This document shows positions 1 through 57,028 of a stretch of DNA of 57,028 nt, piece after piece. Every line of letters begins with the position of its first letter. Positions within the stretch are counted from its first letter, which is position 1. A program made the position numbers and the translations under genes. The DNA comes from Hydrurus foetidus (taxonomy: Eukaryota), in contig UYFQ01000125.1 in NCBI GenBank assembly GCA_900617105.1, positions 1-57,028 on the forward strand. Direction: 5' to 3'. The notes under the pieces were generated by a model that was not told the DNA's origin, made no database searches, and was given only the letters and a program-made list of their open reading frames with translations.

Positions 1-320
1 GTTGGAGTATCCGGAGAAAAGACACTGCTGTAGTTGTATAGTATATGCGTGGATCCCGACGGTCAGCGGTGTGTGCCCTGGGGGTGCAGATCGTGGACCG
101 TTGGATGTGTGGGCTCATGGAGCCATCCATTCATCTATCTTCAACACGGATAGAACATGTGCAATTGCGTTGATATGTAAAGCTTCGTTGCCGTCTTGAT
201 TGATGCCGGTGCACAAGTTTAATTATCAAGTAATTACACAGTACAAAGTCTATTTTACGAGCCTTGGGTCACCGGTCGCACGAGAGTCACAAAGCATCCG
301 GATTCAGAGAAATCCCAACA
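1..320 (+). repeat. 5' LTR, family A copy 1
   Basis: Matches 5115-5434 and 50296-50614; ends in CCCAACA. Confidence 0.95.
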
Positions 321-330
321 TAATTAAACT
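321..330 (+). promoter_or_regulatory. Primer-binding-site position of family A (TAATTAAACT), complementary to its own LTR
   Basis: Abuts the LTR and has no TGG. 320-330 (ATAATTAAACT) is the exact reverse complement of 216-226 (AGTTTAATTAT). Confidence 0.7.
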
Positions 331-5114: not shown

Positions 5115-5434
5115 TGTTGGAGTATCCGGAGAAAAGACACTGCTGTAGTTGTATAAGTATATGCGTGGATCCCGACGGTCAGCGGTGTGTGCCCTTGGGG
5201 TGCAGATCGTGGACCGTTGGATGTGTGGGCTCATGGAGCCATCCATTCATCTATCTTCAACACGGATAGAACATGTGCAATTGCGTTGATATGTAAAGCT
5301 TCGTTGCCGTCTTGATTGATGCCGGTGCACAAGTTTAATTATCAAGTAATTACACAGTACAAAGTCTATTTTACGAGCCTTGGGTCACCGGTCACAGGAG
5401 TCACAAAGCATCCGGGCCTAGAGAAATCCCAACA
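5115..5434 (+). repeat. 3' LTR, family A copy 1
   Basis: TGTTGGAGTATCC...CCCAACA; a few substitutions and indels versus the 5' LTR, mostly near its 3' end. Confidence 0.95.
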
Positions 5435-32489: not shown

Positions 32490-35400
32490 TTATAAAACTC
32501 GTCCTATGACAGTAGCAGTGCAAAGGACTCTAGATGCAGGATCTTTCGAATCTTTAGTGGCGTCTCTAAGATATATCGAAAATGGAACGATTCTATCCTT
32601 TTTCACTACTTCACTGCTCTGTGCCTTGCCTTCTCCTTCTCCTACCACCTCCGCATTATCTCCTTTACTCTGACTATCACCCTCCTTCCCCACTCTCCCT
32701 CTACTCCCCGCAGGTCTGGGATCAAAGCAAGCAATGCCTTCGTCATTCACATGAAAAGACGCGTCTCTCTCAATCTGTTTCCACGCCTTGGACGCTTTAT
32801 TAACGGAATCGGTAGGTTTAGCCGCATATCCGGGAAAAGAAATCATCGAGCCTAGAGGGACTTCTGATGGCGCGTAGACTGGCGAGAACTTGGATCAAAT
32901 GTGCGGAATTAAACAGTTAGGTAGAGGAATAAGTGATGAGGTTACATGTGACTTTGTTTTACTTGATGAGGTTACATGTGACTTTGTTTTACTTGATGAG
33001 GTTACATGTGACTTTGTTTTACTTGATGAGGTTACATGTGACTTTGTTTTACTTGATGAGGTTACATGTGACTTTGTTTTACTTGATGAGGTTACATGTG
33101 ACTTTGTTTTACTTGATGAGATTACATATGACTTTGTTTTACTTGATGAGGTTACATGTGATGTGATGTGATGTGGATTGAATAAGGGAGTTGTCAAGAG
33201 AAAAGCAGCGCAAGAGATCTAGCAACTAGTACATCAAGAAGAAGGATACGTCATGTACTAGTGATGAACCTGAGCTCTCTCCAGACAATTTGTTGTAACA
33301 TGAGAACAATAGCATGTAAAGTCTTCCAACATGACATCGTTTCTTTTCATCATTATTCTCTCATCGACAATTTTCGCGTAATTATGACAGGACAAACATG
33401 ACAGATAGTAGAATACAAACAATGTAACGCAGTTTAGTTCATCTTTTAACACTTGATAAGAACTACAACTCTTATGTACGTTACAAATGCTGTAACTCAC
33501 GACTGACGCACAATGATTAATGAGATAGTACGTATGCGTATTTACTATTTACCTTGTCGGTTTCATCTGTGCTGAAAAGAAGCATGACGCTGGATGCAAC
33601 ACCAAAGAACGCTCTTTCCTTCAAATTACACAGGACCACCATGTTACGGCCAATTAGGCCGTCCATACCAGAACTATTTCCGGCTATCATTCTTTGAGCT
33701 GTAACTGCCGTCCTAAAAAGAGAACAAGGAAAATGCATTCAGTACTGGTGAATCATGTTCAAATTGAGTGGAGGGATAGTGGTAGTGATATAGGTGTAGG
33801 TAGTGCTTGCAGTAATAACGGATGTACATGATTTCTAAAACTGTCTAGTAACGGAAGAAACACTTCGTGTGAGACACTGATCAACATGAACAATCACAAA
33901 ACATCACATCAAACAGTACACGGCAAAACTGAACAAGAAAATATAAGTAGAAATATAAGCAGATGTACAATGCAAATGCATCGAGAGATGGTTGATCTGC
34001 AGTACCTCATGATTCCGTCACTGGATCCAAGGTCCACCACGGTCACCACTAGATTGAGGGCGGTCGGGTCCGGGTGGGGCCCCACTGACACGACCTTGCC
34101 CACTCGCAGCTAGGAGTGACATGTGATAGAGTAGCAGCGGTAGGGTGCAGGTGTTACGAACAGTTTTATATTTTATAGATTTGACGTCAATATCAAATAC
34201 TATAAAAGTGACAATCAAATTCAAAATAAATATCAAAGTAAGTAAGAATATCAATCACAATAAGTATTAATAAAAATATCACATCATATACGAGAGTTTG
34301 CGTGATAAAAAAGGCTGTGTAATCACTTTCAGTACTATTTGTTTGAGTCCTCACACTCAACCCATATCAGCACTACATCATTTGAGTGTTTTTGCGAATT
34401 GTTTTCACTCATTTTTCGCACCAAACGGATTGGGTAGCGTGCAGTAACGGTTAAGTTGAGTGCACAAAAGACAAGAAGTCGTTCGAAAAGCGAAAAGTGT
34501 GTGAAAGTGAGGTTACAAAAATACTCTGATATTCTTTTCCTTCCTCACCTCTAACAGCGGGAGGGCAAGTTCACTGAGAGTTATACCGGAAGACGTACGG
34601 CCAACAGCTCTCCCTCTGGGATTGGATCCGACTGGCCGGGTAAGTCTACTGGCACTCCTACCACTGTCTCTGTTGCTGTCACTGCTGCCTTCAAGATTAG
34701 AAGGGGCACTGTCCGTGCTCTTGTCCATAACGTCCCTTTCTGCACTTCCCTCTCCCTCTCCTAGTCCTTCTTCATCACCCTCTCCTTCACTCTCCCCTCC
34801 ATCTTCACCCTCACCATCTACTGACGCTGTTCTCGTTCCTCTCGGGCCAGCCCCTCCCATTTCCCATGAAGATTCGTCAGATCTGCTCGATCTAGACCCT
34901 CCCTGTTCGTTGTCCCTTGCAGGCCCTCTACCTCTCACTGATTGTTTAGATGCTGATCCTTGTAACAATTCAAACTCCATCAATCTGCTGTGCGACATGA
35001 GCAGCAACGCATCAACAGCCTCTTCTGCGCTATCAGATGCCCACAGTGCTTCAGCTATAGCTAGATGGCATTCTGACGCTTCGCATCTCAAAAGTCTCTC
35101 TAGTGGCATGTCTAGTAATTTATTACGATGTTCAACTGGTTCCCCTCTCCCAGACAACAATCCCACCTTAATCAAGGTGTCATCAATAGATCTCGAGTTC
35201 TGAATTAAAGGGACTTGGCGTGATAAGTCTCTGAAATGCTCTTCAGGTAGAGGACGGTAGCGGCAGAAGAATTCAAAATGCCAAGGTAAGAAATAAAAGG
35301 TGTGTCTTTTTCCGTGATCATCCGATCCGAAGTGGTCTTTAAAATGCACAGAAAGTTCCCAGTATATAGCAATTCTTTCTTCTGCTGTAGGATACCAGCT

Positions 35401-36417
35401 CTTCTTCTCCGCCCATTCCTTGAATATCCATGGTTTAATAAGAGCACCTCTTCCCGCCATCATAGCTGTAACCCCGCTTCTCAATCCTGTGACGTCATCA
35501 ATATGATGGGGTGCGCCATTGTTACTCTCTAGCATCCTATCCTCCGCTTCGTACCATGTAAGAATGTCGCCATTGCCGATGATAGGCACTCCAGCTTTTC
35601 TGGCTATATCGGATATGATATTCCAATCAGCTGGGCGTGTGTAGCGCTGCTCCATTGTTCTTCCGTGGACGGTGACTGCAGCAACACCAGCGTTGACAAG
35701 CCCTTCAACCACTTCATGAGCATTGATTTTTGAATCAGAGACTCCCAGCCGAATTTTGACCGTCATCGGTAGAGGGGTTGATGCAACTGTTAATCCCACG
35801 AGCTTTTCAAGAGAGCTGGGTCTCTTCAACATCGCAGCACCGAGCCCTCGTCTAGTAGCCTCGTAGATTGGACACCCACAATTCAGATCAATCCATGTAG
35901 CTCCTTCTATAACCGCAAGCTCCGCTGCCCTCAGGGCCTCATCTGAGCTTTTCGTTGCAATTTGAAAGCCGAAGTACTTCTCAGTCGGTCCTTTTTTCGC
36001 TAGAGCTCGCTCCTTCTTCTGGGCCTTATGATATCCCTTGAATAAGTTTCTTGCATAAGCCATCTCGCTCATGGTAAAGTTGGAATTAAAGTCTGCACAG
36101 AGCCTACGAAAGGGTAAATTTCCTCCCCTCGTCAGTGGTGCCAATATCAGCTGATTCTGTAAGCTACTTTGGAACTCTTTTACAGACAGTCGCGGTTGAC
36201 TGCTTACTTCTGCTGTGGAGCTTAAAGATTCATGCGGATGTTTACTGAAGCCGCTGCGAGCATCGTGCATAATATGCCGACCTTGCCTCAGGGATCGAGT
36301 AGTAATCGAGGTGAAAGCCATTATCGGAGAAGGTGGCTGTACCACAAGTATTAAGAAGATGAAATGGGCAAAACGAGATGTTCCATAGATGCTGCTGTAT
36401 GGACCGTCCGCAGACAT
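32490..36417 (-). CDS. tRNA-dihydrouridine synthase (DUS3-like) spliced to a C-terminal tRNA-binding OB-fold (EMAP II/Arc1p/Trbp111-type); exons ~36417-34549, 34109-34006, 33712-33553, ~32888-32490
   Basis: DUS motifs LAPLTRGGNLPFRRLC, IDLNCGCP, TVKIRLG, VHGRT, GNGDI, GRGALIKPWIF. Phase-compatible splices give LLE|LRVGKVVSVGPHP...VDLG...VVLCNLKERAFFGVASSVMLL. The true start codon is uncertain. Confidence 0.85.
32934..33161 (+). repeat. Intronic 30-bp minisatellite, about 7.5 copies (GTTACATGTGACTTTGTTTTACTTGATGAG)
   Basis: Six identical units, one unit with 2 substitutions, and partial units at both ends. Confidence 0.97.
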
Positions 36418-36522
36418 CAGAAAGTTATCAAATTCTTCGAAATGGGCCGCCTCCTTGCAAAAATACCTTGCGTCTCCATCAGTACAACCAGAACTTCTAA
36501 CGAAGGTGGTGACAGCGGAGAC

Positions 36523-36813
36523 TGTCGGGATTCGGCGGTAATCCAGAAACGGAAAACGGTAGAAACAGAATTGGTTTTTAAGTTTACCGAGTGAAAGATT
36601 GTGATTGTGGAATGGAAACGATGAGGTGAATCGAGTGGAATGAATGCAATTGAAATGGACAATGTGTAGCTGTTGGAGAACTGGTCGCGACCAGTTCTCT
36701 TCTGAACTGCTTCAACGTGGAAAGATCGGATCGTCATCGTGCCGTTGGGACCGCTCGGTTGTTCGGTGAGCATTGTGTTGTGTGTTTGTGTTTGAAATGA
36801 CAATGCAATGACA
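36523..36813 (-). repeat. 3' LTR, family B
   Basis: Same sequence as 41844-42134. Confidence 0.97.
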
Positions 36814-36902
36814 TGCGCCGGTAAGTGATATATGATGAATCGATATGTGGCTTATGTTATATTGAGAAATGTGGAGTACTATATGTAGGGAAGGGTGAGA
36901 AA

Positions 36903-39900
36903 TTACAATGATGAGTGAGGGTTGTGTGAAGTAGTTGGAGTGTTGAGTAGTTTGCTGCGGAACCATAAGAATTTGGAGGGGGTGAGGCTTTTGGTGAGTC
37001 CATCGGCAATCATGTCGTGAGTACCTATGTGTTGGGGGACAATCTCTTTGGTTTTGTAAAGCCAGCGTATGTAGTGTGATTTGAGGGCGATGTGGCGGGA
37101 CTTGCGGGTGATCTGGTGTGCGGTGGTCAGATTGATGGCTGGTTGGTTATCTTCGAGGATAACTGTTGGAGATATTTGGGGGAAGCCTAGATCTGCTGCA
37201 AACTGTCGGAAGAATTTGACATCTTTCGCGCATCTTCCGAGGGCGAGATACTCGGCTTCGCAGGGGCTGAGGGCGATGCCGGAAGTTTCAGCGGAAGAGT
37301 GGACGGCGAATGGAGCGTTGGTCGTGCCGATCTGGATAGTGTACGCAGAGTGAGAGTGTCCGTCCGGATGGCATGCGTGGGATGAGTCAGCGGCAGCGAG
37401 GATAGTGACTCCGGATGGAAATGAGGATGGGTTGGCGGAGAAAGTAGGGCCGATGTGGGGGCAGCCTTTGAGATATCGGAGGAGGTGGATTTGTTTTGAA
37501 AGGTCGGATTGGGTTGGGGAAGTGTTTCGAGTGCATAGGTGGACAACTTCTTTTCTGATATCGTGTCGAATGGAAAGTAGGAATATGAGAGTGCCGTTGA
37601 TGCGTAAGAAGCGGGTGCGGTCTACTGGGGTAAGGTCGGATGGGGGTCGAAGAAGTTTGCGGTGGATGGTGTAAGTGCGGGGGGACGAGGTCCATGCCAG
37701 ATTGATGTAAGAACTTAATGATGTGGGCGCCTTGGTCGAGAGTACATGAGTGGTCAGCGTTACGTGTTAGACGGACTCCGCAGACACCTGTCGAAGCATC
37801 ATTGAAGGCTATGGGTCCGTAGCGTCCTGTAAGGATGGTTTTGAGTTCATCGCGTAGTGTACGGGAGCAAGTGACGTACCATCCATCGTCGACATGCATG
37901 TTGAGGGTCAGTGAGTCGGCGGGGTTGTCGGGACATTTCTTATAAAAGCTGTGGTGGTCAGAGGGTGTTGGGTGAAAGCCAGCAGATGTTAGGAGGTTGA
38001 TGAGGTCTTTGTCATATTCGTGGTTGGCTTGCTTTATACCATAGCAACAGCCAGTGATTTCTGCGAGCTTGTTGGCGAGGGGACTTGGGAGGTCGGCCGG
38101 GAGGATCGCGATTAGCTGGTGGCCGTTGGTCATCTCGCGTGTGAGCTTGTTGTGGAGGAAGGCGCCTGGAAAATCGAAGTCTCCAAGAAGGAGCTGGTCG
38201 AGGCAGTTACGGTGTGCAGCATCGGCGAGGTAGGAGCTGAGGATGAAGGCACGATTGGTTGTGTCGGAGGTTCCTGCGTATGTATCGTTGTAGGATTCAC
38301 GTGGTTGGCGGCTACCGTCGATGGCGAGGCGAGCAGTGACAATGCCGTTGGATTTCTTCTTGATCAGCATTTGACTACGTAGGAAGATGGCTTTGGATTC
38401 GACACTGGAACGAGGAATGAGTTGAAGGGACTGGTAGGTGTCAAAATGTTTTCCCAGTTCCTTTGCTATTCCTGCAGCAATGTCGGAGGCAGGTAGGAGC
38501 TGCGAGGCTTTACGTATGGACATTTCAGCACGTTGGGGGGTAAGCGGTTGGGGTTCAAGGAGCGTGTGTCGATTGTTGAGGGGAATTGTTGGAGGATTGT
38601 CTATACGGTGCTGGCGATTGCGAGCTGCGGCGAGTTTAGCATTGTCGAGTTTACGTTGGGCAGCGTTGATGTACGCGGAGGGAGGGGGTAAAGGAGGTGG
38701 GACCAGTGTCGAGGGTAGAGAATAACAGCCTCGCCAGAAGTTGGTGGAATGGGATGAAGGATGGGGTGGAGGGATGGATGAGGAAGGAAATGGAAGGAAT
38801 GGAAGGAATGGATGGGGGGGGGGAATGGAAGGGATGGGGTGGAAGGATGGGGTGGTGGTGGATGGGGGACGGAGGAATGGGGTGGGTGGACGGAATGGTG
38901 GAGGGTGGATGGGAAGGATGAGGATGGACAACGGGGGAGAAGGGATGTGACCTGTCACTGTGGCGATGGCTTCAGTGTGAGGTGTATCAGGGAGTTGAAT
39001 TACAATGTTTGGTGATGGTTGGGTTGATGTCTCTGCGGTTGGAGGGGGTGTTTGTGTGGTTGGAGTTGTTGGAAGGGGTGTTTGTGCGGTTGGAGTTGAA
39101 GGGGGAAGGGGAACGTTGGGGACGAATGGTTTTGGGCTCCAGTTGAAGGGAACGAAGTGACGGGGGAAGGGAGCGGTTGGGCGGCGGGGCACGATTGCAC
39201 CGTTTGCAAGAAGGAAGAGTGTACGGCCGGTGAGAAGATCAGGAGCCATGCATACTCCAAGTTCGGCCTTGGGTTCGGCGTTTGCAGCGGTATGGTTAGC
39301 TCTAGCCAGGGCGTGGCGCTTATCTGTATGTTGAGTTACCATGCAGCAGGAGCCGAATGGGAAGGGGTGGCGGGTGGGTTTGTGGCCGTGGAGGAGTTCA
39401 TTGGGGGTAGATGGAGAACTACGTACGTTGATGAGGGTGTTCCGCGTAGCAGCTATGGCCTTGTGTAGGTAGAGAGTATACTTTAGTGGGAGGTGGTAGG
39501 AGAGGCCTGAGAGGGTGGCGGTTGTAAGCTGCCGGAGGGTGAGGATGGAGCGCTCAACGCGTGCGGCGTGTTCTCCAGGGGGGGAGAGCTGAAGGGAGAT
39601 TCCGAGGGATCCAAGTGGTGCAGCGAGGGAAGTGTTGATCTTCTCACAGTCGCCGTGAAGGGTGTGAACGCGATGGTGATGTGCATTGTACGTGGTGGCG
39701 ATAATGTGGTGTAGGGCTTTGAAGACAGCCGGAGTGGATTTGGATGAGGCACCAACGACGGAGAGGTGGCCAGTGAACTCGTCTACTATGATGATTTCAT
39801 GGGTGTGTAGGCCTGGGGAGGGCTCTGGGAGGAGCTGGGGGTCGAAGCTGAGGACGGCTCCAAGTGAGGTGGCGGGGGCGCTAGTGGAGGGGGGATGGGA

Positions 39901-40646
39901 GGGACTGCGGTGTTTACCAGCGGTGCAGTGGGGGCAAGGGCCGCGGAGTTGGCGGTTAAGGGTGACATCGGAGCAGGTTAAGGTGCTGAAAGGGAGCTTG
40001 CCGGTGGAGAGGTTGACACAGAGGCTGCGATCGGAGGGGTGGCAAAGTTCAATGTGGAGGTCTTCAGCAGCATCAGCGCGAGAGCGCTGCTCAGAGTTGA
40101 TATGGGGTACAGCATGCATGAGGGGTAGGAGGGTAGGCTGCTCTGCGGTAGTATGGGGTACGAGGGAATGCGCGGCCATTGGGGGTGATAGTATGAGAGG
40201 GGTTGATTGATGAAGCGTGGAGGAGGGCGGCGAAGTCTACAGGGGTGGGCTAAGAGGGGTCCTGAGGGGGAGGAGCGGATAGTGACGTGACTAAGGGGGC
40301 GAAGGGGGTCAGGTCCATATGTAGCACCGCAGCGTTGCATTTGGCCCAGGCTGAAGAGGTTAACGGGTAGTGTCGGAGAAAAGTAGGCAGAGTTCATAGC
40401 GTTGGTGGTGGGGAGGCAGAGGAGGCGGCCGCGATGGGTGACCGAGCAGGAGCCGCCGACACCTCCGATGGAGAAGGTGTGAGGGAGTGGAGCAAGATCG
40501 TAGAGTAGGGAGGCATCATTGACAGTGTGGAAGGAGCAGGCGTTATCCCAGTAGGACTGATGGTGGTTGAGTGAGGTTGGTGTACTGGAGGAAGCGAGGG
40601 CGAGTGGACGGGAGAAAAGTGCAAGGGAGGTCGTGGGGGCTGGTAG
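36903..40646 (-). pseudogene. Family B pol (PR-INT-RT-RNase H), several frameshifts as assembled
   Basis: Protease YWDNACSFHTVN; integrase H..H..CPHC, LSFDP, HGDCE, VERSI; RT TARLAIDGS, FDFPGAFL, CYGIKQA, HVDD; RNase H SPCEAEY, LEDNQ, IADGLTK; stop at 36905-36903. Confidence 0.9.
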
Positions 40647-41828
40647 TCAGGCGGAGTCCGAGGCGTCGGAGGCGTGGTCGAGTTGGCTAAGGAGTGCTCG
40701 GAGGCGTTGAGAGGTATTGGACGGTGTGGGGGAGGTAAATGGTGGCGGCGGAGGGTGGGGAAGTCGGTTGGGGTTCTTGGAACAGTAGGCGGACAGATGG
40801 CCGAAGCGTTGGACTTTGTCGGCGGAAAGGCACCATGTGCAGTGGGTAGGGTGAAGGTGAGGTTTAGGGGTAGAGTCTTTCTTACCGTTTGCAAGACGTG
40901 GACGGGGGGAAGTCGCTGAGGCTTTGGAGGCGATGAGTGCGGAGCCTTGGGAGGAGACGTCGTCGCGTGCGAAGGAGAGTGAGTTTGCGATCTTCCAGCT
41001 CTGCAGTTGGGACATAAGAGCTGTGGGATCTGGGAACCGTCCGGTTGGATGGTTGTGGAGGAGCTCATCAAGGGCGCGGCGGAACTCGTTGCGGTTGAGT
41101 CCTGCGAGGTAAAGGAAGCTAGTTAATTCAGGTATAGATACAAAGCCCGGGTGAACCGCGGACTCGAAGTCGAGCTTGAATGTTTCAGTCATAGTGGTTA
41201 TTAGTTCAATGTAGGATTCATGTGGCAAGTCGGATTGTGAAACATTGACATAAAGGCGGGTGCGATGGAGTTTGGTGGCGGCATTCCCGATGGAGTGAAT
41301 GTCGCGGACCATGACATAGAAGGGATAGCTCCGAGAGCCGATGGGTTGAAGTTGGTAGGTAGGGTAGTTGGGGTGGGTTTTGACTGCGGTGTGGGAGGCC
41401 AAGGAAATATGTCGGTAGAGATGGTCGAGGCAGTCTGTGTCCTCGTCGGAGAACCGACGCTGTGCTGCCGAGAAGATCTTTTTGTCATCTCTAAAGTTGG
41501 TATTGCCGAGGGTGCTGAGGGGAAGAGTGGCGGGATCGAAGTTGGGTTGAGCGGCTTCGGCGTCGGTGGCTTGTCGGCGCTGATAAGTTAAGAGACCTGG
41601 AGTGGGAGCTCCAGTGAGGTCGGCCTCGAGGTCGGCCTTTGTTGGCTCGATTGGAAAGGGTTGGAGCGGGATGGTGGTGTCGGAGAGGATTTGCTGCCCA
41701 GCGACACCAAATTTGGTGAAGCAGAGGAGCTTCAAGGCTTGATGCCACTGCGACCAGTTGTCTGAGTGGAGGTCCAGCATTGGATGTTGAGCAGTGGAAG
41801 TGGCAGCGGCTGTGGATGTGGAGAGCAT
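40647..41828 (-). CDS. Family B gag (393 aa)
   Basis: ATG starts 2 nt after the PBS; LDLHSDNWSQW gag-like N-terminus; CX2CX10HX4C knuckle; ends at a TGA in frame with protease. Confidence 0.88.
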   Translation of the reverse strand: MLSTSTAAATSTAQHPMLDLHSDNWSQWHQALKLLCFTKFGVAGQQILSDTTIPLQPFPIEPTKADLEADLTGAPTPGLLTYQRRQATDAEAAQPNFDPATLPLSTLGNTNFRDDKKIFSAAQRRFSDEDTDCLDHLYRHISLASHTAVKTHPNYPTYQLQPIGSRSYPFYVMVRDIHSIGNAATKLHRTRLYVNVSQSDLPHESYIELITTMTETFKLDFESAVHPGFVSIPELTSFLYLAGLNRNEFRRALDELLHNHPTGRFPDPTALMSQLQSWKIANSLSFARDDVSSQGSALIASKASATSPRPRLANGKKDSTPKPHLHPTHCTWCLSADKVQRFGHLSAYCSKNPNRLPHPPPPPFTSPTPSNTSQRLRALLSQLDHASDASDSA

Positions 41829-41830
41829 TG

Positions 41831-41843
41831 CTTAAAAACCAAT
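41831..41843 (-). promoter_or_regulatory. Primer-binding-site position of family B (ATTGGTTTTTAAG), complementary to its own LTR
   Basis: Plus strand 41831-41844 CTTAAAAACCAATT is the exact reverse complement of 41890-41903 AATTGGTTTTTAAG. Confidence 0.75.
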
Positions 41844-42134
41844 TGTCGGGATTCGGCGGTAATCCAGAAACGGAAAACGGTAGAAACAGAATTGGTTTTT
41901 AAGTTTACCGAGTGAAAGATTGTGATTGTGGAATGGAAACGATGAGGTGAATCGAGTGGAATGAATGCAATTGAAATGGACAATGTGTAGCTGTTGGAGA
42001 ACTGGTCGCGACCAGTTCTCTTCTGAACTGCTTCAACGTGGAAAGATCGGATCGTCATCGTGCCGTTGGGACCGCTCGGTTGTTCGGTGAGCATTGTGTT
42101 GTGTGTTTGTGTTTGAAATGACAATGCAATGACA
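41844..42134 (-). repeat. 5' LTR, family B
   Basis: Same sequence as 36523-36813; flanked by TSD GAGAC. Confidence 0.97.
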
Positions 42135-43007
42135 GAGACAGCAGAGTCTCAGCGGCTAAAAAAAGCGGGACACGGTAGTACACAGTGAACGATGATTTAT
42201 CAGTGATTTATCCGATTTCGTTGAGTTTTCGCTGCGGTATGGTACAGTATCTGGTATCTAGGGTACTGTATGACCTGTAAATCAATATCAACGGTGTAGA
42301 CGAACGATTGCACGGAGGCATGAATCGACTGAGAATAGATCGGCTGACTATCCCGTCTGAATTAGATAGACCTAGAAATGATATGATAAGAATCCGGAGG
42401 ATTGAAACAACCCTCATAAATTAATAAGTGTGCAGCGTACAGTCAATCACGAGGTGGTTAAAACGACCCCATGAAAGTGTTGGATTCTCAAAGCCTGAAT
42501 GCCAAATTATTGACAGTCAGAATTGATAGGTTAGAGATCTTTGCAGACTGGATCAAAGTTGATGATCATCATCGGCTACTATAAATTTAAGCTCTTTAAT
42601 TATCCGAAAAACCTGCCACTTTGACACTGTCTCAAATCCAATCGCCTCTGGTACAATATTTAATTCAAGTGTCCAAAAGTACGGTAATGTTTCAACATGG
42701 CGTTGAAGACGTATTGTGTACTTTTTATTGCATAAAAATCAAAGCTGTACTTGACAAATATCGGATATCTAGTTTGAATCGTCTGAAAGGCTTGTCTAAA
42801 CTACAATGTCTACGATCAACAAATACTCTCACTTTTGTTTCGTATTGTTGCTTTTCGAGATTAATGTATGTATTACCGCGCGTGACGATTAGTAACTAAA
42901 AGGTCTGGTATTACGCTCCGTATCAAAACGGTGCCCAACTTAACATTCCGGCTTTCAACACTATGGATTTGGTTGACTGTAACTGCTGTAGGTGTTGCGT
43001 CCTGAAG

Positions 43008-46970: not shown

Positions 46971-49900
46971 TCATGCAGACAGGAGTGATGACTCAGCGAC
47001 AACATTAAGTAGCCACTGCTTCAATTGATTGTCCTCCATCTTCGTCATACGGGAGGCATCTATGCGGCGCACAACCACTCCTCTGGACTTTAAGTACGCA
47101 TCTCGCAGCTTGCAGAAATTGATCTTCTTCTCCTGCCTGTGGTGTATGCCGTCCACCTCGATATTGATCACTAGCCATTTGCCTTCAGACGATGCTTCGG
47201 CTTCATCGGTCTTACCAAAGAATGGTATACGAACTACAATGTCACTCTCGAACATATCGAACAAGTACTCGTTGCTAGATACCGTTACTCTAGTCTGTCC
47301 CAATATCTCTACGGCGGCATGATGCATCCTCTTCTCTACCTTTGATGTAAAGTCATCCATGTATTCGCCCTTTGTCATCCTGCGGCGATGCTCGCTACAG
47401 ACCGAGTCAGAGAATTTCGTCCACAACTCATAATTAGTGTCATCAAGAACGTCACGCCTAAAGGGAATGCACAGTAGCACTGCTTGACCGACACTCAACA
47501 AGTCAAGTCTGCTCATGCGATTCACCTCTGTTAAAGCCATTGTGTGGCGTAGAAGAACAGCCAATATTCCAACGCAAAGACGACTGCTCATACTCTGCAT
47601 GCCGTACAATGCGTTGCCTACTGCCTGAGCGTCGAGTGACTCCTTGCAGCTGTGCACCTTATCCGACAGAGCTGATATCATCGATCGCACTTCCACATGA
47701 TCACTGCTCATACTCTGCATGCCGTACAATGCGTTGCCTACTGCCTGAGCGCTCAGTGACTCCTTGCAGCTGTGCACCTTACCCAACAGAGCTGATATCA
47801 TCGATCGCACTTCCACATGATCACTGCTCATACTCTGCATGCCGTACAATGCGTTGCCTACTGCCTGAGCGCTCAGTGACTCCTTGCAGCTGTGCACCTT
47901 ATCCGACAGAGCTGATATCATCGATCGCACTTCCACATGATCACTGCTCATACTCTGCATGCCGTACAATGCGTTGCCTACTGCCTGAGCGTCGAGTGAC
48001 TCCTTGCAGCTGTGCACCTTACTCAACAGAGCTGATATCATCGATCGCACTTCCACGTGATCACTGCTCATACACTGCATGCCGTACAATGCATTGCCTA
48101 CATTCTGAGCGCTAAGTGACTCCTTACAGCTGTGCACCTTACCCAGCAGTGCTGATATCATCGACCGCACTTCCACATGATCACTGCTCATACACTGCAT
48201 GCCGTACAATGCATTGCCCACTGCCTGAGCGCTAAGTGACTCCTTACAGCTGTGCACCTTACCCGACAGTGCTGATATCATCGACCGCACTTCCACATGA
48301 TCACTGCTCATACTCTGCATGCCGTACAATGCGTTGCCTACATTCTGAGCGTCGAGTGACTCCTTGCAGCTGTGCACCTTACTCAACAGAGCTGATATCA
48401 TCGATCGCACTTCCACATGATCACTGCTCATACTCTGCATGCCGTACAATGCGTTGCCTACTGCCTGAGCGCTCAGTGACTCCTTGCAGCTGTGCACCTT
48501 ACTCAACAGAGCTGATATCATCGATCGCACTTCCACATGATCACTGCTCATACTCTGCATGCCGTACAATGCGTTGCCTACTGCCTGAGCACTCAGTGAC
48601 TCCTTGCAGCTGTGCACCTTATCCGACAGAGCTGATATCATCGATCGCACTTCCACATGATCACTGCTCATACTCTGCATGCCGTACAATGCGTTGCCTA
48701 CTGCCTGAGCGCTCAGTGACTCCTTGCAGCTGTGCACCTTACCCAACAGAGCTGATATCATCGATCGCACTTCCACATGATCACTGCTCATACTCTGCAT
48801 GCCGTACAATGCGTTGCCTACATTCTGAGCGTCGAGTGACTCCTTGCAGCTGTGCACCTTACTCAACAGAGCTGATATCATCGATCGCACTTCCACATGA
48901 TCACTGCTCATACTCTGCATGCCGTACAATGCGTTGCCTACTGCCTGAGCGCTCAGTGACTCCTTGCAGCTGTGCACCTTATCCGACAGAGCTGATATCA
49001 TCGATCGCACTTCCACATGATCACTGCTCATACTCTGCATGCCGTACAATGCGTTGCCTACATTCTGAGCGTCGAGTGACTCCTTGCAGCTGTGCACCTT
49101 ACTCAACAGAGCTGATATCATCGATCGCACTTCCACATGATCACTGCTCATACTCTGCATGCCGTACAATGCGTTGCCTACATTCTGAGCTCTCAGTGAC
49201 TCCTTGCAGCTGTGCACCTTATCCGACAGAGCTGATATCATCGATCGCACTTCCACATGATCACTGCTCATACTCTGCATGCCGTACAATGCGTTGCCTA
49301 CTGCCTGAGCTCTCAGTGACTCCTTGCAGCTGTGCACCTTACTCAACAGAGCTGATATCATCGATCGCACTTCCACATGATCACTGCTCATACTCTGCAT
49401 GCCGTACAATGCGTTGCCTACTGCCTGAGCACTCAGTGACTCCTTGCAGCTGTGCACCTTACTCAACAGAGCTGATATCATCGATCGCACTTCCACATGA
49501 TCACTGCTCATACTCTGCATGCCGTACAATGCGTTGCCTACTGCCTGAGCGTCGAGTGACTCTTGACATTTTTTTATCATGATTGTAATGCTGCCAAGTA
49601 GCTCTAATGATTGACGTGTTTTCAATTTGTTGTTCTGCAGTCCAAGCAGAGCCATCGATATTGAATGGGAAGGTACTGCCTCTCTGTTTTGAGTCGACTT
49701 TACCAGAGCTGCTGTCATTGAAGCCACAACAGCTAGATATCCATCGTCGTCCTCTACTAAGCACTGCAGACCATACAGAGTAGCAGAGATATCGATAGGT
49801 CTCCAAGAAGCCGATGATAGAATCTCAACCTGTGACGCAATAGCTGGCAGGTGACGTTTTAAATGAAAGTGGGATTTGTTCCCAGATGATTTCTTCCCTG

Positions 49901-50051
49901 TGATGCGCATGAAGTCCGATATCTCACGTACAGTACATCCAGGCTGCCATTCCTCCACGTACGCATCATCAATTTTAGACGATTTACCACCGGAAGATGA
50001 ATACATGAATTTGCGCTTATGAATGCCCTCCACCGCATCGCGCAACGCCAT
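46971..50051 (-). CDS. Tandem 40-aa helical-repeat (OPR-like) protein with C-terminal RAP domain, 1026 aa
   Basis: Unbroken ORF with 2 degenerate plus 16.5 near-identical repeats ESLxAQxVGNALYGMQxMSSDHVEVRSMISALxxKVHSCK. C-terminal SDIV...NIEVDGIHH...KLRDAYLKSRGVVVRRI matches the RAP/DUF559-like pattern. A possible splice acceptor just before the ATG means the N-terminus may be incomplete. Confidence 0.85.
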   Translation of the reverse strand: MALRDAVEGIHKRKFMYSSSGGKSSKIDDAYVEEWQPGCTVREISDFMRITGKKSSGNKSHFHLKRHLPAIASQVEILSSASWRPIDISATLYGLQCLVEDDDGYLAVVASMTAALVKSTQNREAVPSHSISMALLGLQNNKLKTRQSLELLGSITIMIKKCQESLDAQAVGNALYGMQSMSSDHVEVRSMISALLSKVHSCKESLSAQAVGNALYGMQSMSSDHVEVRSMISALLSKVHSCKESLRAQAVGNALYGMQSMSSDHVEVRSMISALSDKVHSCKESLRAQNVGNALYGMQSMSSDHVEVRSMISALLSKVHSCKESLDAQNVGNALYGMQSMSSDHVEVRSMISALSDKVHSCKESLSAQAVGNALYGMQSMSSDHVEVRSMISALLSKVHSCKESLDAQNVGNALYGMQSMSSDHVEVRSMISALLGKVHSCKESLSAQAVGNALYGMQSMSSDHVEVRSMISALSDKVHSCKESLSAQAVGNALYGMQSMSSDHVEVRSMISALLSKVHSCKESLSAQAVGNALYGMQSMSSDHVEVRSMISALLSKVHSCKESLDAQNVGNALYGMQSMSSDHVEVRSMISALSGKVHSCKESLSAQAVGNALYGMQCMSSDHVEVRSMISALLGKVHSCKESLSAQNVGNALYGMQCMSSDHVEVRSMISALLSKVHSCKESLDAQAVGNALYGMQSMSSDHVEVRSMISALSDKVHSCKESLSAQAVGNALYGMQSMSSDHVEVRSMISALLGKVHSCKESLSAQAVGNALYGMQSMSSDHVEVRSMISALSDKVHSCKESLDAQAVGNALYGMQSMSSRLCVGILAVLLRHTMALTEVNRMSRLDLLSVGQAVLLCIPFRRDVLDDTNYELWTKFSDSVCSEHRRRMTKGEYMDDFTSKVEKRMHHAAVEILGQTRVTVSSNEYLFDMFESDIVVRIPFFGKTDEAEASSEGKWLVINIEVDGIHHRQEKKINFCKLRDAYLKSRGVVVRRIDASRMTKMEDNQLKQWLLNVVAESSLLSA
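47583..49562 (-). repeat. Coding 120-bp tandem array, 16.5 units
   Basis: Exact 120-bp periodicity, visible as alternating near-identical 60-nt lines; no indels seen. Confidence 0.98.
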
Positions 50052-50295
50052 TTCCTATAAAACAGATCGTAGACAACAGAACGATGCGCGAGTAATGACC
50101 AATGATCGATTACAGATCACTGCAGAATCGATATTCCTAAATTTGAGAAGAACAACAACTCTCGAACATTGCGAATTTCTTCATTAACTTCCGTTAAAAT
50201 TGTAACGGAATCTGAGAAACCTGAAATATTTATACGGTACAGTATAGCTATGGCGTGCCAAACTGTCCAAAATGGTATAGAATGCGGGAGTGCCG

Positions 50296-51866
50296 TGTTG
50301 GAGTATCCGGAGAAAAGACATTGCTGCAGTTGTATAGTATATGCGTGGACCCCGACCGTCAGCGGTATGTGCCCTGGGGGTGCAGATCGTGGACCGTTGG
50401 ATGTTTGGGCTCATAGAGCCATTCATTCATCTATCTTCAACTTGGATAGAACCATGTGCAATTGCGTTGATATGTAAAGCTTCGTTGCCGTCTTGATTGA
50501 TGCCGGTGCACAAGTTTAATTATCAAGTAATACACACTACAAGTCTACTTTTACGAGCCTTGGGTCACCGGTCGCACAAGTCACAAAGCATCCGGGCTTC
50601 GAGAAATCCCAACATAATTAAACTAGATCAGCGCATCGAGATGCCGCCGAAGAAACAAGAAGAACCAAAGTCAGCTGCAGAGCAGTGCATGCTGAGAATC
50701 GGACGCTACAACAACATAGTGCAGTGGAGGGAAGACATGCAGAACGAGGCATGCGGCCTGTACGGTATGACAGGCACGTTCTTCACGACCAACGAGAGTT
50801 ACGTCCATCCGTATCCTCGAGAGGAGGATTACAATCCCACCTTTCAAACGGTGGAAATCGATACCACGACGCGGGTACCGAAAATGAAGACGAGGACGAC
50901 GACGAATCCGTGAACCTCGAAAATGTCGAGATCGGGCCACAGCTCCCACCAGCGCCTCCTGTAGTGTACTCCGAGGCACTAATCGACAGACTGCGAGCCA
51001 ATGCGTTTGAGGGACGCCGTAAGGCAGTTGAAACGCAAAAGCTCTTTCCGCTTATGTGGTCGAGAATGTCGACAGGGTCGAAGTCTAAGGTGCGAGAGGA
51101 GCCAGGCTTCGAACAGGCACGCCTAAGATTGGACAGTGTGAAACTGTGGGAGTACATCAGAAGGAGTCACCGAACACGCATTTATGGCGAGGATGACTCG
51201 ATGAGAGCAATGAATGTGCACGAGCAGACAAACAGGTACAACTACCTCAGACAGGGTGAGCGAGAGGTAATCGGCGACTTCAAGACGCGCTTTGATAACC
51301 AGGTATCGGCCAACAGAGGTGTGGGCATGGCAGATGTGGAAGAAGTGATTAGAGCAATCGACTTCCTCAGTAAGTTGGACCCAAAAAGGCATACCGATAT
51401 GTTGACACTGATGCGTAACAACGCTGTACAAAACCTGCCGAATAGCTTCCCTTCCACCTTAGCCGGAGCATACAGGGTGGCGTCATCCTGGACCAGCTCG
51501 GGCGGAGCAGTCCCCCTTTGCGCCGAGCAACATTCCGCGTTCCTGACAGATTCTTTGGTAGGCACAAAGGAAAAAGTCTCGGGAAAGGGAGCAAAGGGGA
51601 AGACTGCAGGAACGAAGAAGAAATCATCGTCAGTGATCTGTTTCGTATGCGGAAACACAGGACACTTCGCCAGAGATTGCGAACAACGCAAGGATTCGGA
51701 GCATGCGATGCTCACCAATGTCGAGGAGGACATCGAAAAAGATGACGAGAGCATAGGAGCAGCATTCGTCACGACAGACGAGTTCGCCCTGTTCACTCGC
51801 AGTCATGTGCTGCTAGATAACCAGGCGTCTGTAAACATATTTTGCAATCCGTCATTGCTGACGGAT
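50296..51866 (+). mobile_element. Family A copy 2, 3'-truncated (5' LTR 50296-50614, gag from 50641, ends inside protease)
   Basis: Closely matches 1-~1585; same PBS TAATTAAACT at 50615-50624; homology stops after VLLDNQASVNIFCNPSLLT. Confidence 0.95.
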
Positions 51867-54189
51867 TGCACGTACGTATGTACGTGTGTACGTGACCATA
51901 CAAGTGTACGCTATGCTACATGCGTGCGTACGTACGTACATATTGACCATGTACGTGCATGTGTAAGTACATGTGTGTGCGTATGCATATAATAATTTGT
52001 ACTAACATATGCACGTACGTATGTACGTGTGTACGTGACCATACAAGTGTACGCTATGCTACATGCGTGCGTGCGTACGTGCGTACGTACATATTGACTA
52101 TGTACATGTGTAAGTACATGTGTGTGCGTATGCATAAATGAGTATGCACTAACATGTGTAAGTACGTGTGTACGTGTGCATGTTATCATATCTGCATGTG
52201 TACTTACATACGTACGTGCCGCATAACGTACATGTATATATTTGTAACTATATTTGCAACTACATTACTACAGACATAGCTTGATAGAATCAAGTGGTCT
52301 GACACTCCCCGTAGTGAAGATGTAGTGTAAAATAATGCATGTTTACTTATGAGCTACCTTTATAATATTAGAATTAACATAGTATATGTGTGATCAAGAC
52401 AAATACAATATTAAAACATAATTAGTATAGTGCTCTTTAAAGATTTCGTCTCTGAGACTGATCTATAATTTGATTTAGAAGTTTATTAAATATTGGTTGA
52501 GAAACTCTTTTTGTACCAATATCTGAATTATTATCGCTTTAACAACTACGCAAGTACCATCAGCAACCTTCTCTTTGACCCAGTTTTCGGTGAGGTCGAG
52601 GTGCCGTAGGTTGCGTGTCATGTGTGCTGCCTTAGAATGGTATATACAGGCTTGGTTGTCTTCTTCAATAGAGGTTGGACCTTGGACCCATCCCATCATG
52701 TTTAGGATGCCTCTGTTGGCTATGACCTCTGCTTTGAGTGTGTGGTTGACAGCCTTGATTTCCGACTCTGCCGTTGATGTTGATATGCTGCCTTGGTCGG
52801 TGGAACACCAGCAGATAAGGTTACGGCCGAGGTATCCAAGATATGCAGTCTGGGAGTGGCTATTGTCGGGATTACCACCCAAATCTGCATCGCATTGAAA
52901 CCGGAGTTGGAGTAGCGTTGTCATAGTCTCGATGTCTCTGGGTCCATCGTGTCCATGGAACACTAGTCGATCACTTCGTGCGTACTTGCAGTACTGCAGT
53001 AAGTGTTTGAGGAATTTGATATGTCTGGGACCTGGGTTGTTACTATAACGGGACAGTACATTGAGTGCATACAGAATGCCGACCATGGTATGTACCATAC
53101 CGTGCATTAGTTGACCCACGACCCTCCTGTACGGGTACTTCATACACTGCATACGTTCCTCAGGGGTAGAAGCGTTGTCTAGTTTTGACAATGCAGGTTC
53201 TTGGTCCCCATTTGGGTATCGTAAGTGCATGTCCTTTGCACCAGATATATTAGCTTCTTTTATTATTGAACCAATCATGCGATGTTGATCCATATAATAT
53301 GTGCCATCTTCATCACGCTGAATACGAATACCAACGAACTCCTTGTCAGTTGCATCAGTGACTTCATACTTGTGTGCATTGAAGGTGGCGATGATCAGAT
53401 CCTATTCATCAAGTTTGTCCGAAGGACCAAACCATCTGAAGTCATCACTGTGACCAATGATAAGCATGGGTCTACCATCTGTGGTCCATTTAAAGAAGAA
53501 CTTGAGGTCCCAGGGTGTGTTCTTGTAACCACACTCGAAGATACAAATATCAAACTCAATGGAAAAGTTTTGCCCTGCAGGTGGGAATCCATAAAGATTG
53601 CCGACAGCCTGAAAGCAGAAACCGGGTGGGCAAGTGTATCCCTGCGGTGTCTTTATGTGCACCGGGAAGTTAACATTTGCTCTTGTAATGAGGTAAGCAC
53701 CAATGAGGTCACCTCCTTTCATTACTAGTCCATATGCTGCTGCAATGCTTAGTGCCATCTTGATGGAACACGATGATACATTTCCGCAGTATACGGCGTC
53801 GGGGTCGAAGTCCACGAGTGGTATCATCATATCTCCCCGTCCCACTAAACGGGCTTTTTTCGTACCGTCGGTTTTTATACTAAAAAGCCACATCATTGGT
53901 ACCAGGTGTTCGTCAATGTATGGTACTAATACATGTAAACATGAGTTCTTCTCGAATTTCTTTAATTCAGTATCTATTGCGTTTTTCCATTCAGGAGTAG
54001 CCATAGCTTTCCAGAATGATTTTGGCACATTTAGTTGATCGAAATTGATGAATATTTTTTCGTGATGACTTGCTTCAATCAATGAGAGAAAATGTTCGTG
54101 ATTTCTATCATGTGTAGAGTACCAGTAGACAGCATCGTCATTTTCAATGTTTTGAATTGGTGTATTAATACCAATGTCATTATCATCGA
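51867..54189 (-). mobile_element. Copia family C, older degenerate copy: RT-RNase H, PPT and truncated 3' LTR (51867-52304)
   Basis: Near-duplicate of 54933-57028. TGG>TAG stop at 53402-53404 and a 10-bp deletion near 52537. On the minus strand, PPT GGGGAG is followed by TGTCAGAC. Confidence 0.92.
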
Positions 54190-55233
54190 TGTAAGACTAA
54201 ATACAAGATGTCACCTTCTAGCGTTCGCAGCGAAGGTGAAGAAGCAGCTGCAGGCTACCGTTTCAATTCAGTGAGCTATCGAGTAGACGAAGCTGTGAAG
54301 TATAACGTATTAAATTCTGATTAGAGTTTACAGATAGCCACGCAAAAGAGCTATCGGAACAGTTCATGACAGTGAAACTACCTTGAGACAAAGTTCACAG
54401 CGAGATGTGTTGTTCATAGCATGTGCTTGAGGAACGTTGCATGAATGCTTATAGTAACGAAGTGTTTTGGCGATACTGAAGAATCATGAAAGGCGAACGT
54501 TCATTTGCGTGAGGTCAGAGGGTTCGTACTAACTGCTACATGGCGATAGTACAGGGGTACGTATGCGTGTATATGTATATGAACGTACATGCGTGATTAA
54601 CCACTATATGGCGATAATGCGGGTACATGTATGTAGAACGTATGGGTAAGTGCAAGAGTTATCCACGTATGTACACCTATATACATCTATGTACTACGCT
54701 ATTGGCGATCATTCATACGTACATATTAGGGCTATGGCATACGTAATGGCGGTACGTTGTGCGTAATGTGTATTTGTACTGGCTTGTATGCGTACATGTG
54801 CGTGTGCGTGACCATGCAAGTGTACGCTTTACGTGCGTATCTGCGTGCGTACGTGCGTACGTGAATAATGACGCATTACGTAATGTAGAATACAATGTGA
54901 TGCGTGTATATATAATAATTTGTACTAACATGTGCACGTACGTATGTACGTGTGAGCGTGACCATACAAGTGTACGCTATGCTACATGCGTGCGTGCGTG
55001 CAACGTACGTACATACATATGACTATGTACGTACATGTGTAAGTACATGTGTGTACGTATGCATAAATGAGTATGCACTAACATGTGTAAGTACGTGTGT
55101 ACGTGTGCATGTTATCATATCTGCATGTGTACTTACGTACGTACGTGCCGCATAACGTACATGTATATATTTGAAACTATATTTGCAACTATATTACTAC
55201 AGACATATCTTGATAGAATCAAGTGGTCTGACA
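54190..55233 (-). repeat. 3' LTR, family C, containing degenerate TACG/TGTA tandem repeats
   Basis: TG...CA ends with an imperfect terminal inverted repeat; its right part matches ~51990-52304. Confidence 0.85.
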
Positions 55234-55365
55234 CTCCCCGTAGTGAAGATGTAGTGTAAAATAATGCATGTTTACTTATGAGCTACCTTTATAATATTAG
55301 AATTAACATAGTATATGTGTGATCAAGACAAATACAATATTAAAACATAATTAGTATAGTGCTGT

Positions 55366-57028
55366 TTAAAGATTTCGTCTCTGAGACTGATCTATAATTT
55401 GATTTAGAAGTTTATTAAATATTGGTAGAGAAACTCTTTTTGTACCAATATCTGAATTATTATCGCACGATTTAACTTTAACAACTACGCAAGTACCATC
55501 AGCAACCTTCTCTTTGACCCAGTTTTCGGTGAGGTCGAGGTGCCTTAGGTTGCGTGTCATGTGTGCTGCCTTAGAATGGTATATACAGGCTTGGTTGTCT
55601 TCTTCAATAGAGGTTGGACCTTGGACCCATCCCATCATGTTTAGGATGCCTCTGTTGGCTATGACCTCTGCTTTGAGTGTGTGGTTGACAGCCTTGATTT
55701 CCGACTCTGCCGTTGATGTTGATATGCTGCCTTGGTCGGTGGAACACCAGCAGATAAGGTTACGGCCGAGGTATCCAAGGTATGCAGTCTGGGAGTGGCT
55801 ATTGTCGGGATTACCACCCAAATCTGCATCGCATTGAAACCGGAGTTGAAGTAGCGTTGTCATAGTCTCGATGTCTCTGGGTCCATCGTGTCCATGGAAC
55901 ACTAGTCGATCACTTCGTGCGTACTTGCAGTACTGCAATAAGTGTTTGAGGAATTTGATATGTCTGGGACCTGGGTTGTTACCATAACGGGATAGTACAT
56001 TGAGTGCATACAGAATGCCGACCATGGTATGTACCATACCGTACATTAGTTGACCCACGACCCTCCTGTACGGGTACTTCATACACTGCATACGTTCCTC
56101 AGGGGTAGAAGCGTTGTCTAGTTTTGACAATGCAGGTTCTTGGTCCCCAGTTGGGTATGGTAAGTGCATGTCCTTTGCACCAGATATATTAGCCTCTTTT
56201 ATTATTGAATCAATCATGCGATGTTGATCCATATAATATGTGCCATCTTCATCACGCTGAATACGAATACCAACGAACTCCTTGTCAGTTGCATCAGTGA
56301 CTTCATACTTGTGTGCATTGAAGGTGGCGATGATCAGATCCCATTCATCAAGTTTGTCCGAAGGACCAAACCATCTGAAGTCATCACTGTGAGCGATGAT
56401 AAGCATGGGTCTACCATCTGTGGTCCATTTAAAGAAGAACTTGAGGTCCCAGGGTGTGTTCTTGTAACCACACTCGAAGATACAAATATCAAACTCTATG
56501 GAAAAGTTTTGCCCTGCAGGTGGGAATCCATAAAGATTGCCGACAGCCTGAAAGCAGAAACCGGGTGGGCAAGTGTATCCCTGCGGTGTCTTTATGTGCA
56601 CCGGGAAGTTAACATTTGCTCTTGTAATGAGGTAAGCACCAATGAGGTCACCTCCTTTCATTACTAGTCCATATGCTGCTGCAATGCTTAGTGCCATCTT
56701 GATGGAACACGATGATACATTTCCGCAGTATACGGCGTCGGGGTCGAAGTCCACGAGTGGTATCATCATATCTCCCCGTCCCACTAAACGGGCCTTTTTC
56801 GTACCGTCGGTTTTTATACTAAAAAGCCACATCATTGGTACCAGGTGTTGGTCAATGTATGGTACTACATGTAAACATGAGTTCTTCTCGAATTTCTTTA
56901 ATTCAGTATCTATTGCGTTTTTCCATTCAGGTATAGCCATAGCTTTCCAGAATGATTTTGGCACATTGAGTTGATCGAAATTGATGAAGAGTTTTTCGTG
57001 ATGACTTGCTTCAATCAATAGAGAAAAT
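55366..57028 (-). CDS. Family C pol, RT-RNase H portion (5'-partial, intact frame)
   Basis: KKARLVGRGD, GDLIGAYL, NLYGFPPAG, HSDD, YPYRRVVGQL, CDADLGG, STAESE, EEDN, SDIGTK. Confidence 0.93.
   Translation of the reverse strand, partial: FSLLIEASHHEKLFINFDQLNVPKSFWKAMAIPEWKNAIDTELKKFEKNSCLHVVPYIDQHLVPMMWLFSIKTDGTKKARLVGRGDMMIPLVDFDPDAVYCGNVSSCSIKMALSIAAAYGLVMKGGDLIGAYLITRANVNFPVHIKTPQGYTCPPGFCFQAVGNLYGFPPAGQNFSIEFDICIFECGYKNTPWDLKFFFKWTTDGRPMLIIAHSDDFRWFGPSDKLDEWDLIIATFNAHKYEVTDATDKEFVGIRIQRDEDGTYYMDQHRMIDSIIKEANISGAKDMHLPYPTGDQEPALSKLDNASTPEERMQCMKYPYRRVVGQLMYGMVHTMVGILYALNVLSRYGNNPGPRHIKFLKHLLQYCKYARSDRLVFHGHDGPRDIETMTTLLQLRFQCDADLGGNPDNSHSQTAYLGYLGRNLICWCSTDQGSISTSTAESEIKAVNHTLKAEVIANRGILNMMGWVQGPTSIEEDNQACIYHSKAAHMTRNLRHLDLTENWVKEKVADGTCVVVKVKSCDNNSDIGTKRVSLPIFNKLLNQIIDQSQRRNL

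Follow-up and report, generated by a model that had tools for sequence, protein, structure and literature searches.

The locus described here raises the question of how a Copia retrotransposon, termed family B, starts reverse transcription: from the 3' end of a host tRNA, or from a piece of its own RNA. LTR elements are generally taken to be primed by tRNAs; Tf1 is the one proven exception, and plant TAR is a predicted case among Copia elements. In the window (the whole stretch of DNA analysed, 57,028 bases) the complete family B element runs from 42134 to 36523 on the minus strand (5,612 bp). Its 5' LTR (41844-42134, TGT...ACA, 291 bp) is 100% identical to its 3' LTR (36523-36813), and copies of the target-site duplication GTCTC lie upstream (42135-42139) and downstream (36518-36522), all on the minus strand; the element thus has the two TG...CA LTRs and the target-site duplication of Ty1/copia, and the identical LTRs and GTCTC duplication indicate a recent insertion. 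The gag ORF (40647-41828, 393 aa) ends in a TGA in frame with pol, which in this copy is spread over three frames: a first piece with the protease region (39978-40646; weak Pol_BBD match, E 6.6e-5, and matching N-termini of relatives), a second with integrase followed by reverse transcriptase (37387-40236; Pfam RVT_2 and alignment), and a third with the reverse transcriptase C-terminus and RNase H (36903-37766), all on the minus strand. The order gag, protease, integrase, reverse transcriptase, RNase H is that of Copia. The reverse transcriptase is divergent (RVT_2 E 0.0011, under the curated cut-off; Atlas RVT_2 clusters at 0.95-0.96), and a Pfam search with gag gave no match. Environmental collections hold 49 pol and 68 gag homologues, the latter 39-97% identical to the family B gag, and family B is present in 20 of the 24 runs listed, mostly freshwater, sediment and air metagenomes.

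Gag and pol share one frame with a single stop between them (TGA at 40647-40649, minus strand), and a single gag/pol stop in the same frame is also found at L009:1148, L010:390, L011:1393 and L054:2500 (TAG in L054); pol is therefore likely made by stop-codon readthrough. Directly downstream of the element lies a dihydrouridine synthase gene (34513-36522, minus strand; Pfam Dus, E 3.6e-53), with which the 3' LTR is in frame in a stop-to-stop ORF and whose expression it could affect.

On the minus strand, 41903-41890 reads CTTAAAAACCAATT and 41844-41831 reads AATTGGTTTTTAAG, separated by a loop of 45 nt. The first stretch is an arm within the LTR (LTR positions 232-245; second copy at 36569-36582 in the 3' LTR) and is predicted to serve as the self-primer, at or close to the 5' end of the RNA; the second is the primer-binding site (PBS), composed of the terminal A of the 5' LTR and the following 13 bases and placed two bases before the gag ATG. 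The two are joined by perfect 14-bp Watson-Crick pairing, terminal A included. A duplex of this length over the PBS and the terminal LTR A had been described in an earlier note on this DNA, and re-reading of the sequence confirmed both the match and the loop. The LTR end from which the register is counted is set independently, by the identical 3' LTR and the GTCTC duplication. With folding begun at the arm, the predicted pair probabilities of the duplex have a mean of 0.93; with the whole LTR folded, 13 of the 14 pairs are still at 0.9 or above. An Rfam search over 41700-42200 gave no match. According to Neumann et al. 2019 (PMC6317226), self-priming is predicted where at least 10 bp of LTR complement start 0-5 bp after the 5' LTR; family B has 13 bp from +1, and 14 bp with the terminal A. 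A chance inverted repeat in A+T-rich DNA might be suspected from the composition of the duplex (A-U in 10 of 14 pairs) and from one 12-bp chance match between families, but this explanation is already refuted: in 20,000 dinucleotide-shuffled versions of the LTR, each scored at the best of nine offsets for the start, the match never came to 13 bp; the window contains no second perfect inverted repeat of at least 14 bp with a loop of 4-150 nt; the match recurs in 19 of 23 elements; and it covaries in one clade of relatives. Judged from its sequence, family B probably primes reverse transcription with the RNA of its own LTR arm, in the manner of Tf1, and not with a host tRNA.

Family A, for which the earlier note had claimed the same geometry, has an LTR arm at 216-226 (plus strand; also 5332-5342 and 50513-50523) and, at 320-330 (plus strand; also 50614-50624), a PBS with the 11-bp complement of that arm. 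The register is that of family B, the loop is 93 nt, and the duplex is present in both copies; at least 11 bp was reached by 7 of 20,000 shuffles, and the duplex disappears once the whole LTR is included in folding. The RT-RNase H regions of close family B relatives are only 22-28% identical to that of family A. Of family C, the 3' side alone lies inside the window. The second family A copy (5' part; region 50296-57028) is broken at 51865 by two tandem partial family C copies of about 2.9 kb, 96% alike; the family C LTR contains long GTAC/GCAC-type repeats.

Relatives were collected by an RT-based scan of metagenome contigs, which gave 53 loci with 25-48% best-segment identity, many of them entire elements that have collapsed to a circle in which a single LTR separates pol from gag. 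The LTR-PBS-gag junction was placeable in 21 of the 53, giving 23 testable elements together with families A and B. The remaining 32 loci, L042, L046 and L060 among them, were left out, their junction not being placeable; these 32 also include L057 (partial duplicate of L056) and L016, L029, L039 and L055 (LTR with no gag after it). For each ACA lying no more than 150 nt from the gag ATG, the bases that follow it were matched against the 250 nt on the upstream side; the longest perfect match was kept and compared with 400 dinucleotide shuffles treated in the same way. By this statistic, which was fixed after the regions were inspected, a match to the own LTR at p<0.05 is found in 19 of the 23 elements (8-15 bp): 14 with 10-15 bp and five with 8-9 bp, of which L010 and L053 lengthen via G-U pairs and L011 across a bulge. 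A significant match is absent in L014 (probably without an LTR), L033, L054 and L058 (with mismatches). Within the offsets searched, every one of the 19 positives has its helix beginning at -1 or +1 relative to the LTR end, and the arm always lies 13-132 nt ahead of that end; the end itself is independently confirmed for B, A and the L017 family (in L039 an L017-family LTR runs into unrelated flank) and is taken from the TGT...ACA ends in the other elements. Most duplexes stop sharply on their outer side, which is what an RNA 5' end would give. In L018 and L013 the 77-nt loop begins GTA just after the arm; that of L018 contains GTAAGC, TACTAAC and TAG and resembles a small intron inside the LTR.

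In an all-against-all comparison of 18 representatives, the own LTR region is strictly the best fit for the PBS in 15; L033 and L054 fail, and L023 is tied with a 12-bp chance match in the A+T-rich L009. The 306 cross-family pairs comprise 300 at 7 bp or less, five at 8 bp and one at 12 bp. Positives occur in the B clade (B, L009, L010, L011; SH-aLRT 99), the L021 clade, L040/L048, L013/L018, the A clade (A, L056, L059) and L053, and when the RT-RNase H tree is rooted at its midpoint they fall on either side of the root (a quick tree of 46 rows with long branches, built without reference sequences). The earlier note had expected the arrangement to be widespread and the complement to be kept in sister elements; both expectations held, with a family-specific PBS/LTR match in 19 of 23 testable elements (21 metagenome relatives, A and B) and a complement in most relatives, with clean compensatory change in one alignable clade.

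Gag-based scans of metagenome and viral contigs, and RT-based scans of viral contigs, gave no match. Prokaryotic genome bins gave three gag fragments: L001, with the LTR end present and the PBS shortened by a deletion, and L002 and L003, both without a junction; further searches of two such bins gave internal pieces only. L001-L008 (genomes G001 and G002) are eukaryotic retrotransposon contigs in two bacterial bins, likely contamination. In L003 (6074-7106) the gag fragment is a long inverted repeat folded on itself, 75% alike.

The compensatory change is found in the L021 clade. In its seven alignable elements, with four distinct PBS sequences, the 11-bp helix is paired in 77 of 77 cells, although the sequences are related and the cells are therefore not independent events. 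Two-sided change is seen in 3 of the 11 helix pairs (8 cells) and one-sided change in none; the covariation score was reached by 0 of 500 shuffles, and slid-helix controls are 20-51% paired. The count of pairs with two-sided change, taken alone, is within the shuffles (139 of 500). Within family B, a one-base deletion in the PBS run (41834) is carried by contigs of runs X6, X1 and X13 and a one-base deletion in the arm run (41896) by contigs of X6 and X1; L001 carries the shorter arm. The two deletions look like a compensating pair, but they were not seen together on one contig, and run X13, listed with the PBS deletion and not the arm deletion, counts against compensation.

Covariation demonstrates pairing, not priming, and the duplex could be a conserved structural or regulatory hairpin (for packaging, dimer formation, translation control or masking of the site), with a tRNA fragment or another small RNA priming at or near the site. 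Some Copia elements are known to use a half-tRNA as primer (PMC6317226), a PBS-less hairpin with a role described as unknown has been reported in fungal GalEa (PMC5445492), and the complement of the family B PBS is readable as an anticodon-loop-like CU-UAA-AA. Three observations make this reading improbable: the PBS is completely different between families and follows the LTR rather than a fixed host RNA; the absence of one-sided (G-U) changes in 77 cells is unusual for an ordinary structural helix; and, for the offsets searched, the helices of the 19 positives without exception begin at precisely -1 or +1 relative to the end of the LTR. A half-tRNA-Leu(UAA) primer was considered and judged unlikely.

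The PBS of family B contains TGG at +3 after the LTR, in a usual PBS register, so that it had to be weighed whether an intact host tRNA, with a 3' end reading ...CUUAAAAACCA, is the primer and the LTR match a by-product. TGG is present at the PBS in 1 of the 18 representatives, family B itself, and is missing from the other 17, including the nearest relatives with a junction (L009, L010 and L011). A tRNA fitting the family B site would need to start UUUUAAG. Its acceptor stem would then be rich in A-U and open with four U, a very unlikely feature in a tRNA made by nuclear Pol III; in other runs, moreover, the family B PBS commonly has one T less. A tRNA gene search of the window found none. 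Since TGG is confined to family B among the representatives, tRNA priming is unlikely, and since the PBS changes with the LTR family by family, it cannot track a small fixed set of host tRNAs. The whole-tRNA primer was judged unlikely on the single TGG among 18 and the implied UUUUAAG start, and is given very little credence here; the caveat raised over TGG in the earlier note is thereby largely answered.

If family B primes itself, its transcript would start at or just before 41903 (minus strand), the RNA 5' arm would fold back onto the PBS and then be cut to act as primer, and about 45 nt of strong-stop DNA would be made before transfer. If plus-strand synthesis then copies the attached primer, any alteration of the LTR arm would pass into the PBS within a single round; copying of this kind would explain two-sided changes without mismatched intermediates. 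The Tf1 primer is reportedly not removed, as a 2006 title of Atwood-Moore has it. Loops of only 13-21 nt in L040 and L009-L011 leave very short strong-stop DNA. The dinucleotide AC stands just before the arm in 12 of 16 elements (background 0.24; post hoc test), and TCA directly ahead of it in L056, L058 and L059. The stramenopile initiator is TCATTCT according to PMC3599244, and the AC and TCA contexts may fit an initiator at this place, which is suggestive only; the bases that precede the arm in family B, GTAAAC, resemble the initiator poorly. A contig of an RNA run covers 41559-41920, bridging the PBS and running 17 bases past 41903. Since assembly collapses the two LTRs and a contig does not reveal where transcription starts, this contig neither supports nor refutes a start at 41903; its extension is explicable by LTR collapse or by DNA. 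Contigs of run X20 (RNA) are sparse.

The arm might instead act from the RNA 3' end, where the 3' LTR carries another copy of it, or from a separate RNA molecule, in a circle or dimer, as a primer or as an aid to strand transfer; this would be a tRNA-free route other than that of Tf1. The arm is indeed present in both LTRs, several PBS cores are near-palindromic, and Ty1 5'-3' pairing is a precedent for a circle or dimer. The extra helices of Tf1, moreover, were not found in 16 elements. However, the arm always lies 13-132 nt ahead of the LTR end and is immediately preceded by a context resembling an initiator, and if the RNA were cut behind the arm at its 3' end, the sequence required for strand transfer would presumably be lost; we hold this route to be unlikely.

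Priming from the RNA 5' end has its experimental model in Tf1, in which 11 bases at the start of the RNA pair with the PBS and, once RNase H has severed them, act as primer (PMC7175516); where the Tf1 transcript starts, that it is cut between bases 11 and 12, and the role of RNase H have all been shown experimentally, and the self-priming model of Tf2 is restated in PMC5341516. As in Tf1 and Tf2 of Schizosaccharomyces pombe (Tf1/sushi), the PBS beside the 5' LTR is complementary to the LTR, over 11 nt in Tf1 (PMC7175516) and 8-15 here, and a tRNA match at the PBS is absent in Tf1 and improbable here. Unlike in the Tf1/sushi group, which are Ty3/gypsy chromoviruses, integrase precedes reverse transcriptase; the element is thus a Copia and not a Tf1/sushi member. 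The 'pretzel' structure described for Tf1 has three duplexes, two of them extra helices beside the PBS (bioRxiv 10.1101/2022.12.06.519325). In a crude test restricted to contiguous helices, neither extra helix exceeded shuffled loops in any of 16 elements here.

Among Copia elements, the TAR lineage of plant Ty1/copia (Houba, Osr-1) resembles family B in that its self-priming is predicted by the complementarity criterion of PMC6317226; according to that source, self-priming is predicted for 12% of plant elements, TAR included. Family B differs from TAR in its host, likely an ochrophyte alga rather than a land plant, and further in its non-purine plus-strand primer site and in having gag and pol in frame across one TGA. 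Fungal GalEa (Donnart et al. 2017, PMC5445492) are, as described there, Copia elements that have no tRNA PBS; the sequence immediately following their LTR is paired and in many cases palindromic, the LTRs (TGT...CA) are short, the target-site duplication is 5 bp long, and the polypurine tract is variable. Their partner sequence lies 12-41 bp downstream, is conserved and is no LTR complement (PMC5445492), whereas here the partner lies upstream in the LTR and varies between families; the GalEa Conserved Hairpin Site (9-bp CTGATCAGT/CTAATTAGT, partner downstream) is not found in family B, the PBS of which differs and pairs upstream. In L054, the sequence after the likely LTR end has no self-complement and reads CTGATCGGT, one base off the GalEa CHSeq1, CTGATCAGT, given in PMC5445492.

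Like the diatom CoDi elements (Maumus et al. 2009, PMC2806351), family B is a Copia element, probably of a stramenopile alga, and the nearest Atlas clusters with any taxon record list diatoms (1-4 records each). Word searches found no mention of a tRNA or PBS for CoDi in the main text of PMC2806351 and no mention of priming in PMC1940013. The earlier note was aware of no demonstration of such a mechanism in stramenopile Copia. No report of self-priming in stramenopile or algal Copia was found in the literature covered, which included few subscription journals; the idea is nevertheless less new than the note implied, self-priming being already predicted for plant TAR (PMC6317226). The CoDi feature table (PMC2806351) and the PBS tables of PMC6317226 may bear on it further. 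New here are the host group and superfamily branch, the central duplex without the extra helices of Tf1, and the unusual plus-strand primer site of the B branch.

No polypurine tract precedes the 3' LTR of family B; the plus-strand primer position (36814-36830, minus strand, ending CCGGCGCA) is non-purine and carries instead a G+C motif ending CCGGC(G)CA. A motif of this type also stands before the LTR in L010, L011, L017, L019, L021, L023, L030 and L033; the region has 4-7 purines in its last 12 bases and is conserved between elements with unrelated-looking LTRs, which suggests an unusual plus-strand primer.

We put forward, tentatively and as something short of probable, a wider reading: that tRNA-free self-priming is normal across a deep protist Copia radiation (RT-RNase H identity down to about 25%) separate from TAR and Tf1, with the central duplex alone, a PBS rewritten in each round and, in the B branch, a non-purine plus-strand primer. 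On this wider reading, both primers of the B branch would depart from the textbook, and a hairpin or self-priming state would be supported as ancestral or repeatedly gained in Copia. Broad self-priming in algal Copia would show that the exception to tRNA priming is common outside model organisms; it would also bear on whether self-priming came before tRNA priming, hairpin priming having been proposed as ancestral by Benachenhou et al. 2013 (PMC3601003). Such elements would presumably lie beyond the reach of silencing by PBS-targeted tRNA fragments, and they would be overlooked or wrongly assessed by annotation tools that require both a purine tract and a PBS matching a tRNA. Being young and abundant, family B is a practical place for a first direct test of self-priming in a Copia element.

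Two further features of the window are recorded. A 1,027-aa ORF (46971-50054, minus strand) consists of about 16-17 near-identical 40-aa repeats (120-bp units). The host is likely an ochrophyte stramenopile: for the RFC subunit encoded in the window, all 14 species-named rows among 101 matches are diatoms, Tribonema or Pinguiococcus, at 51-58% identity (proteins of at least 367 residues).
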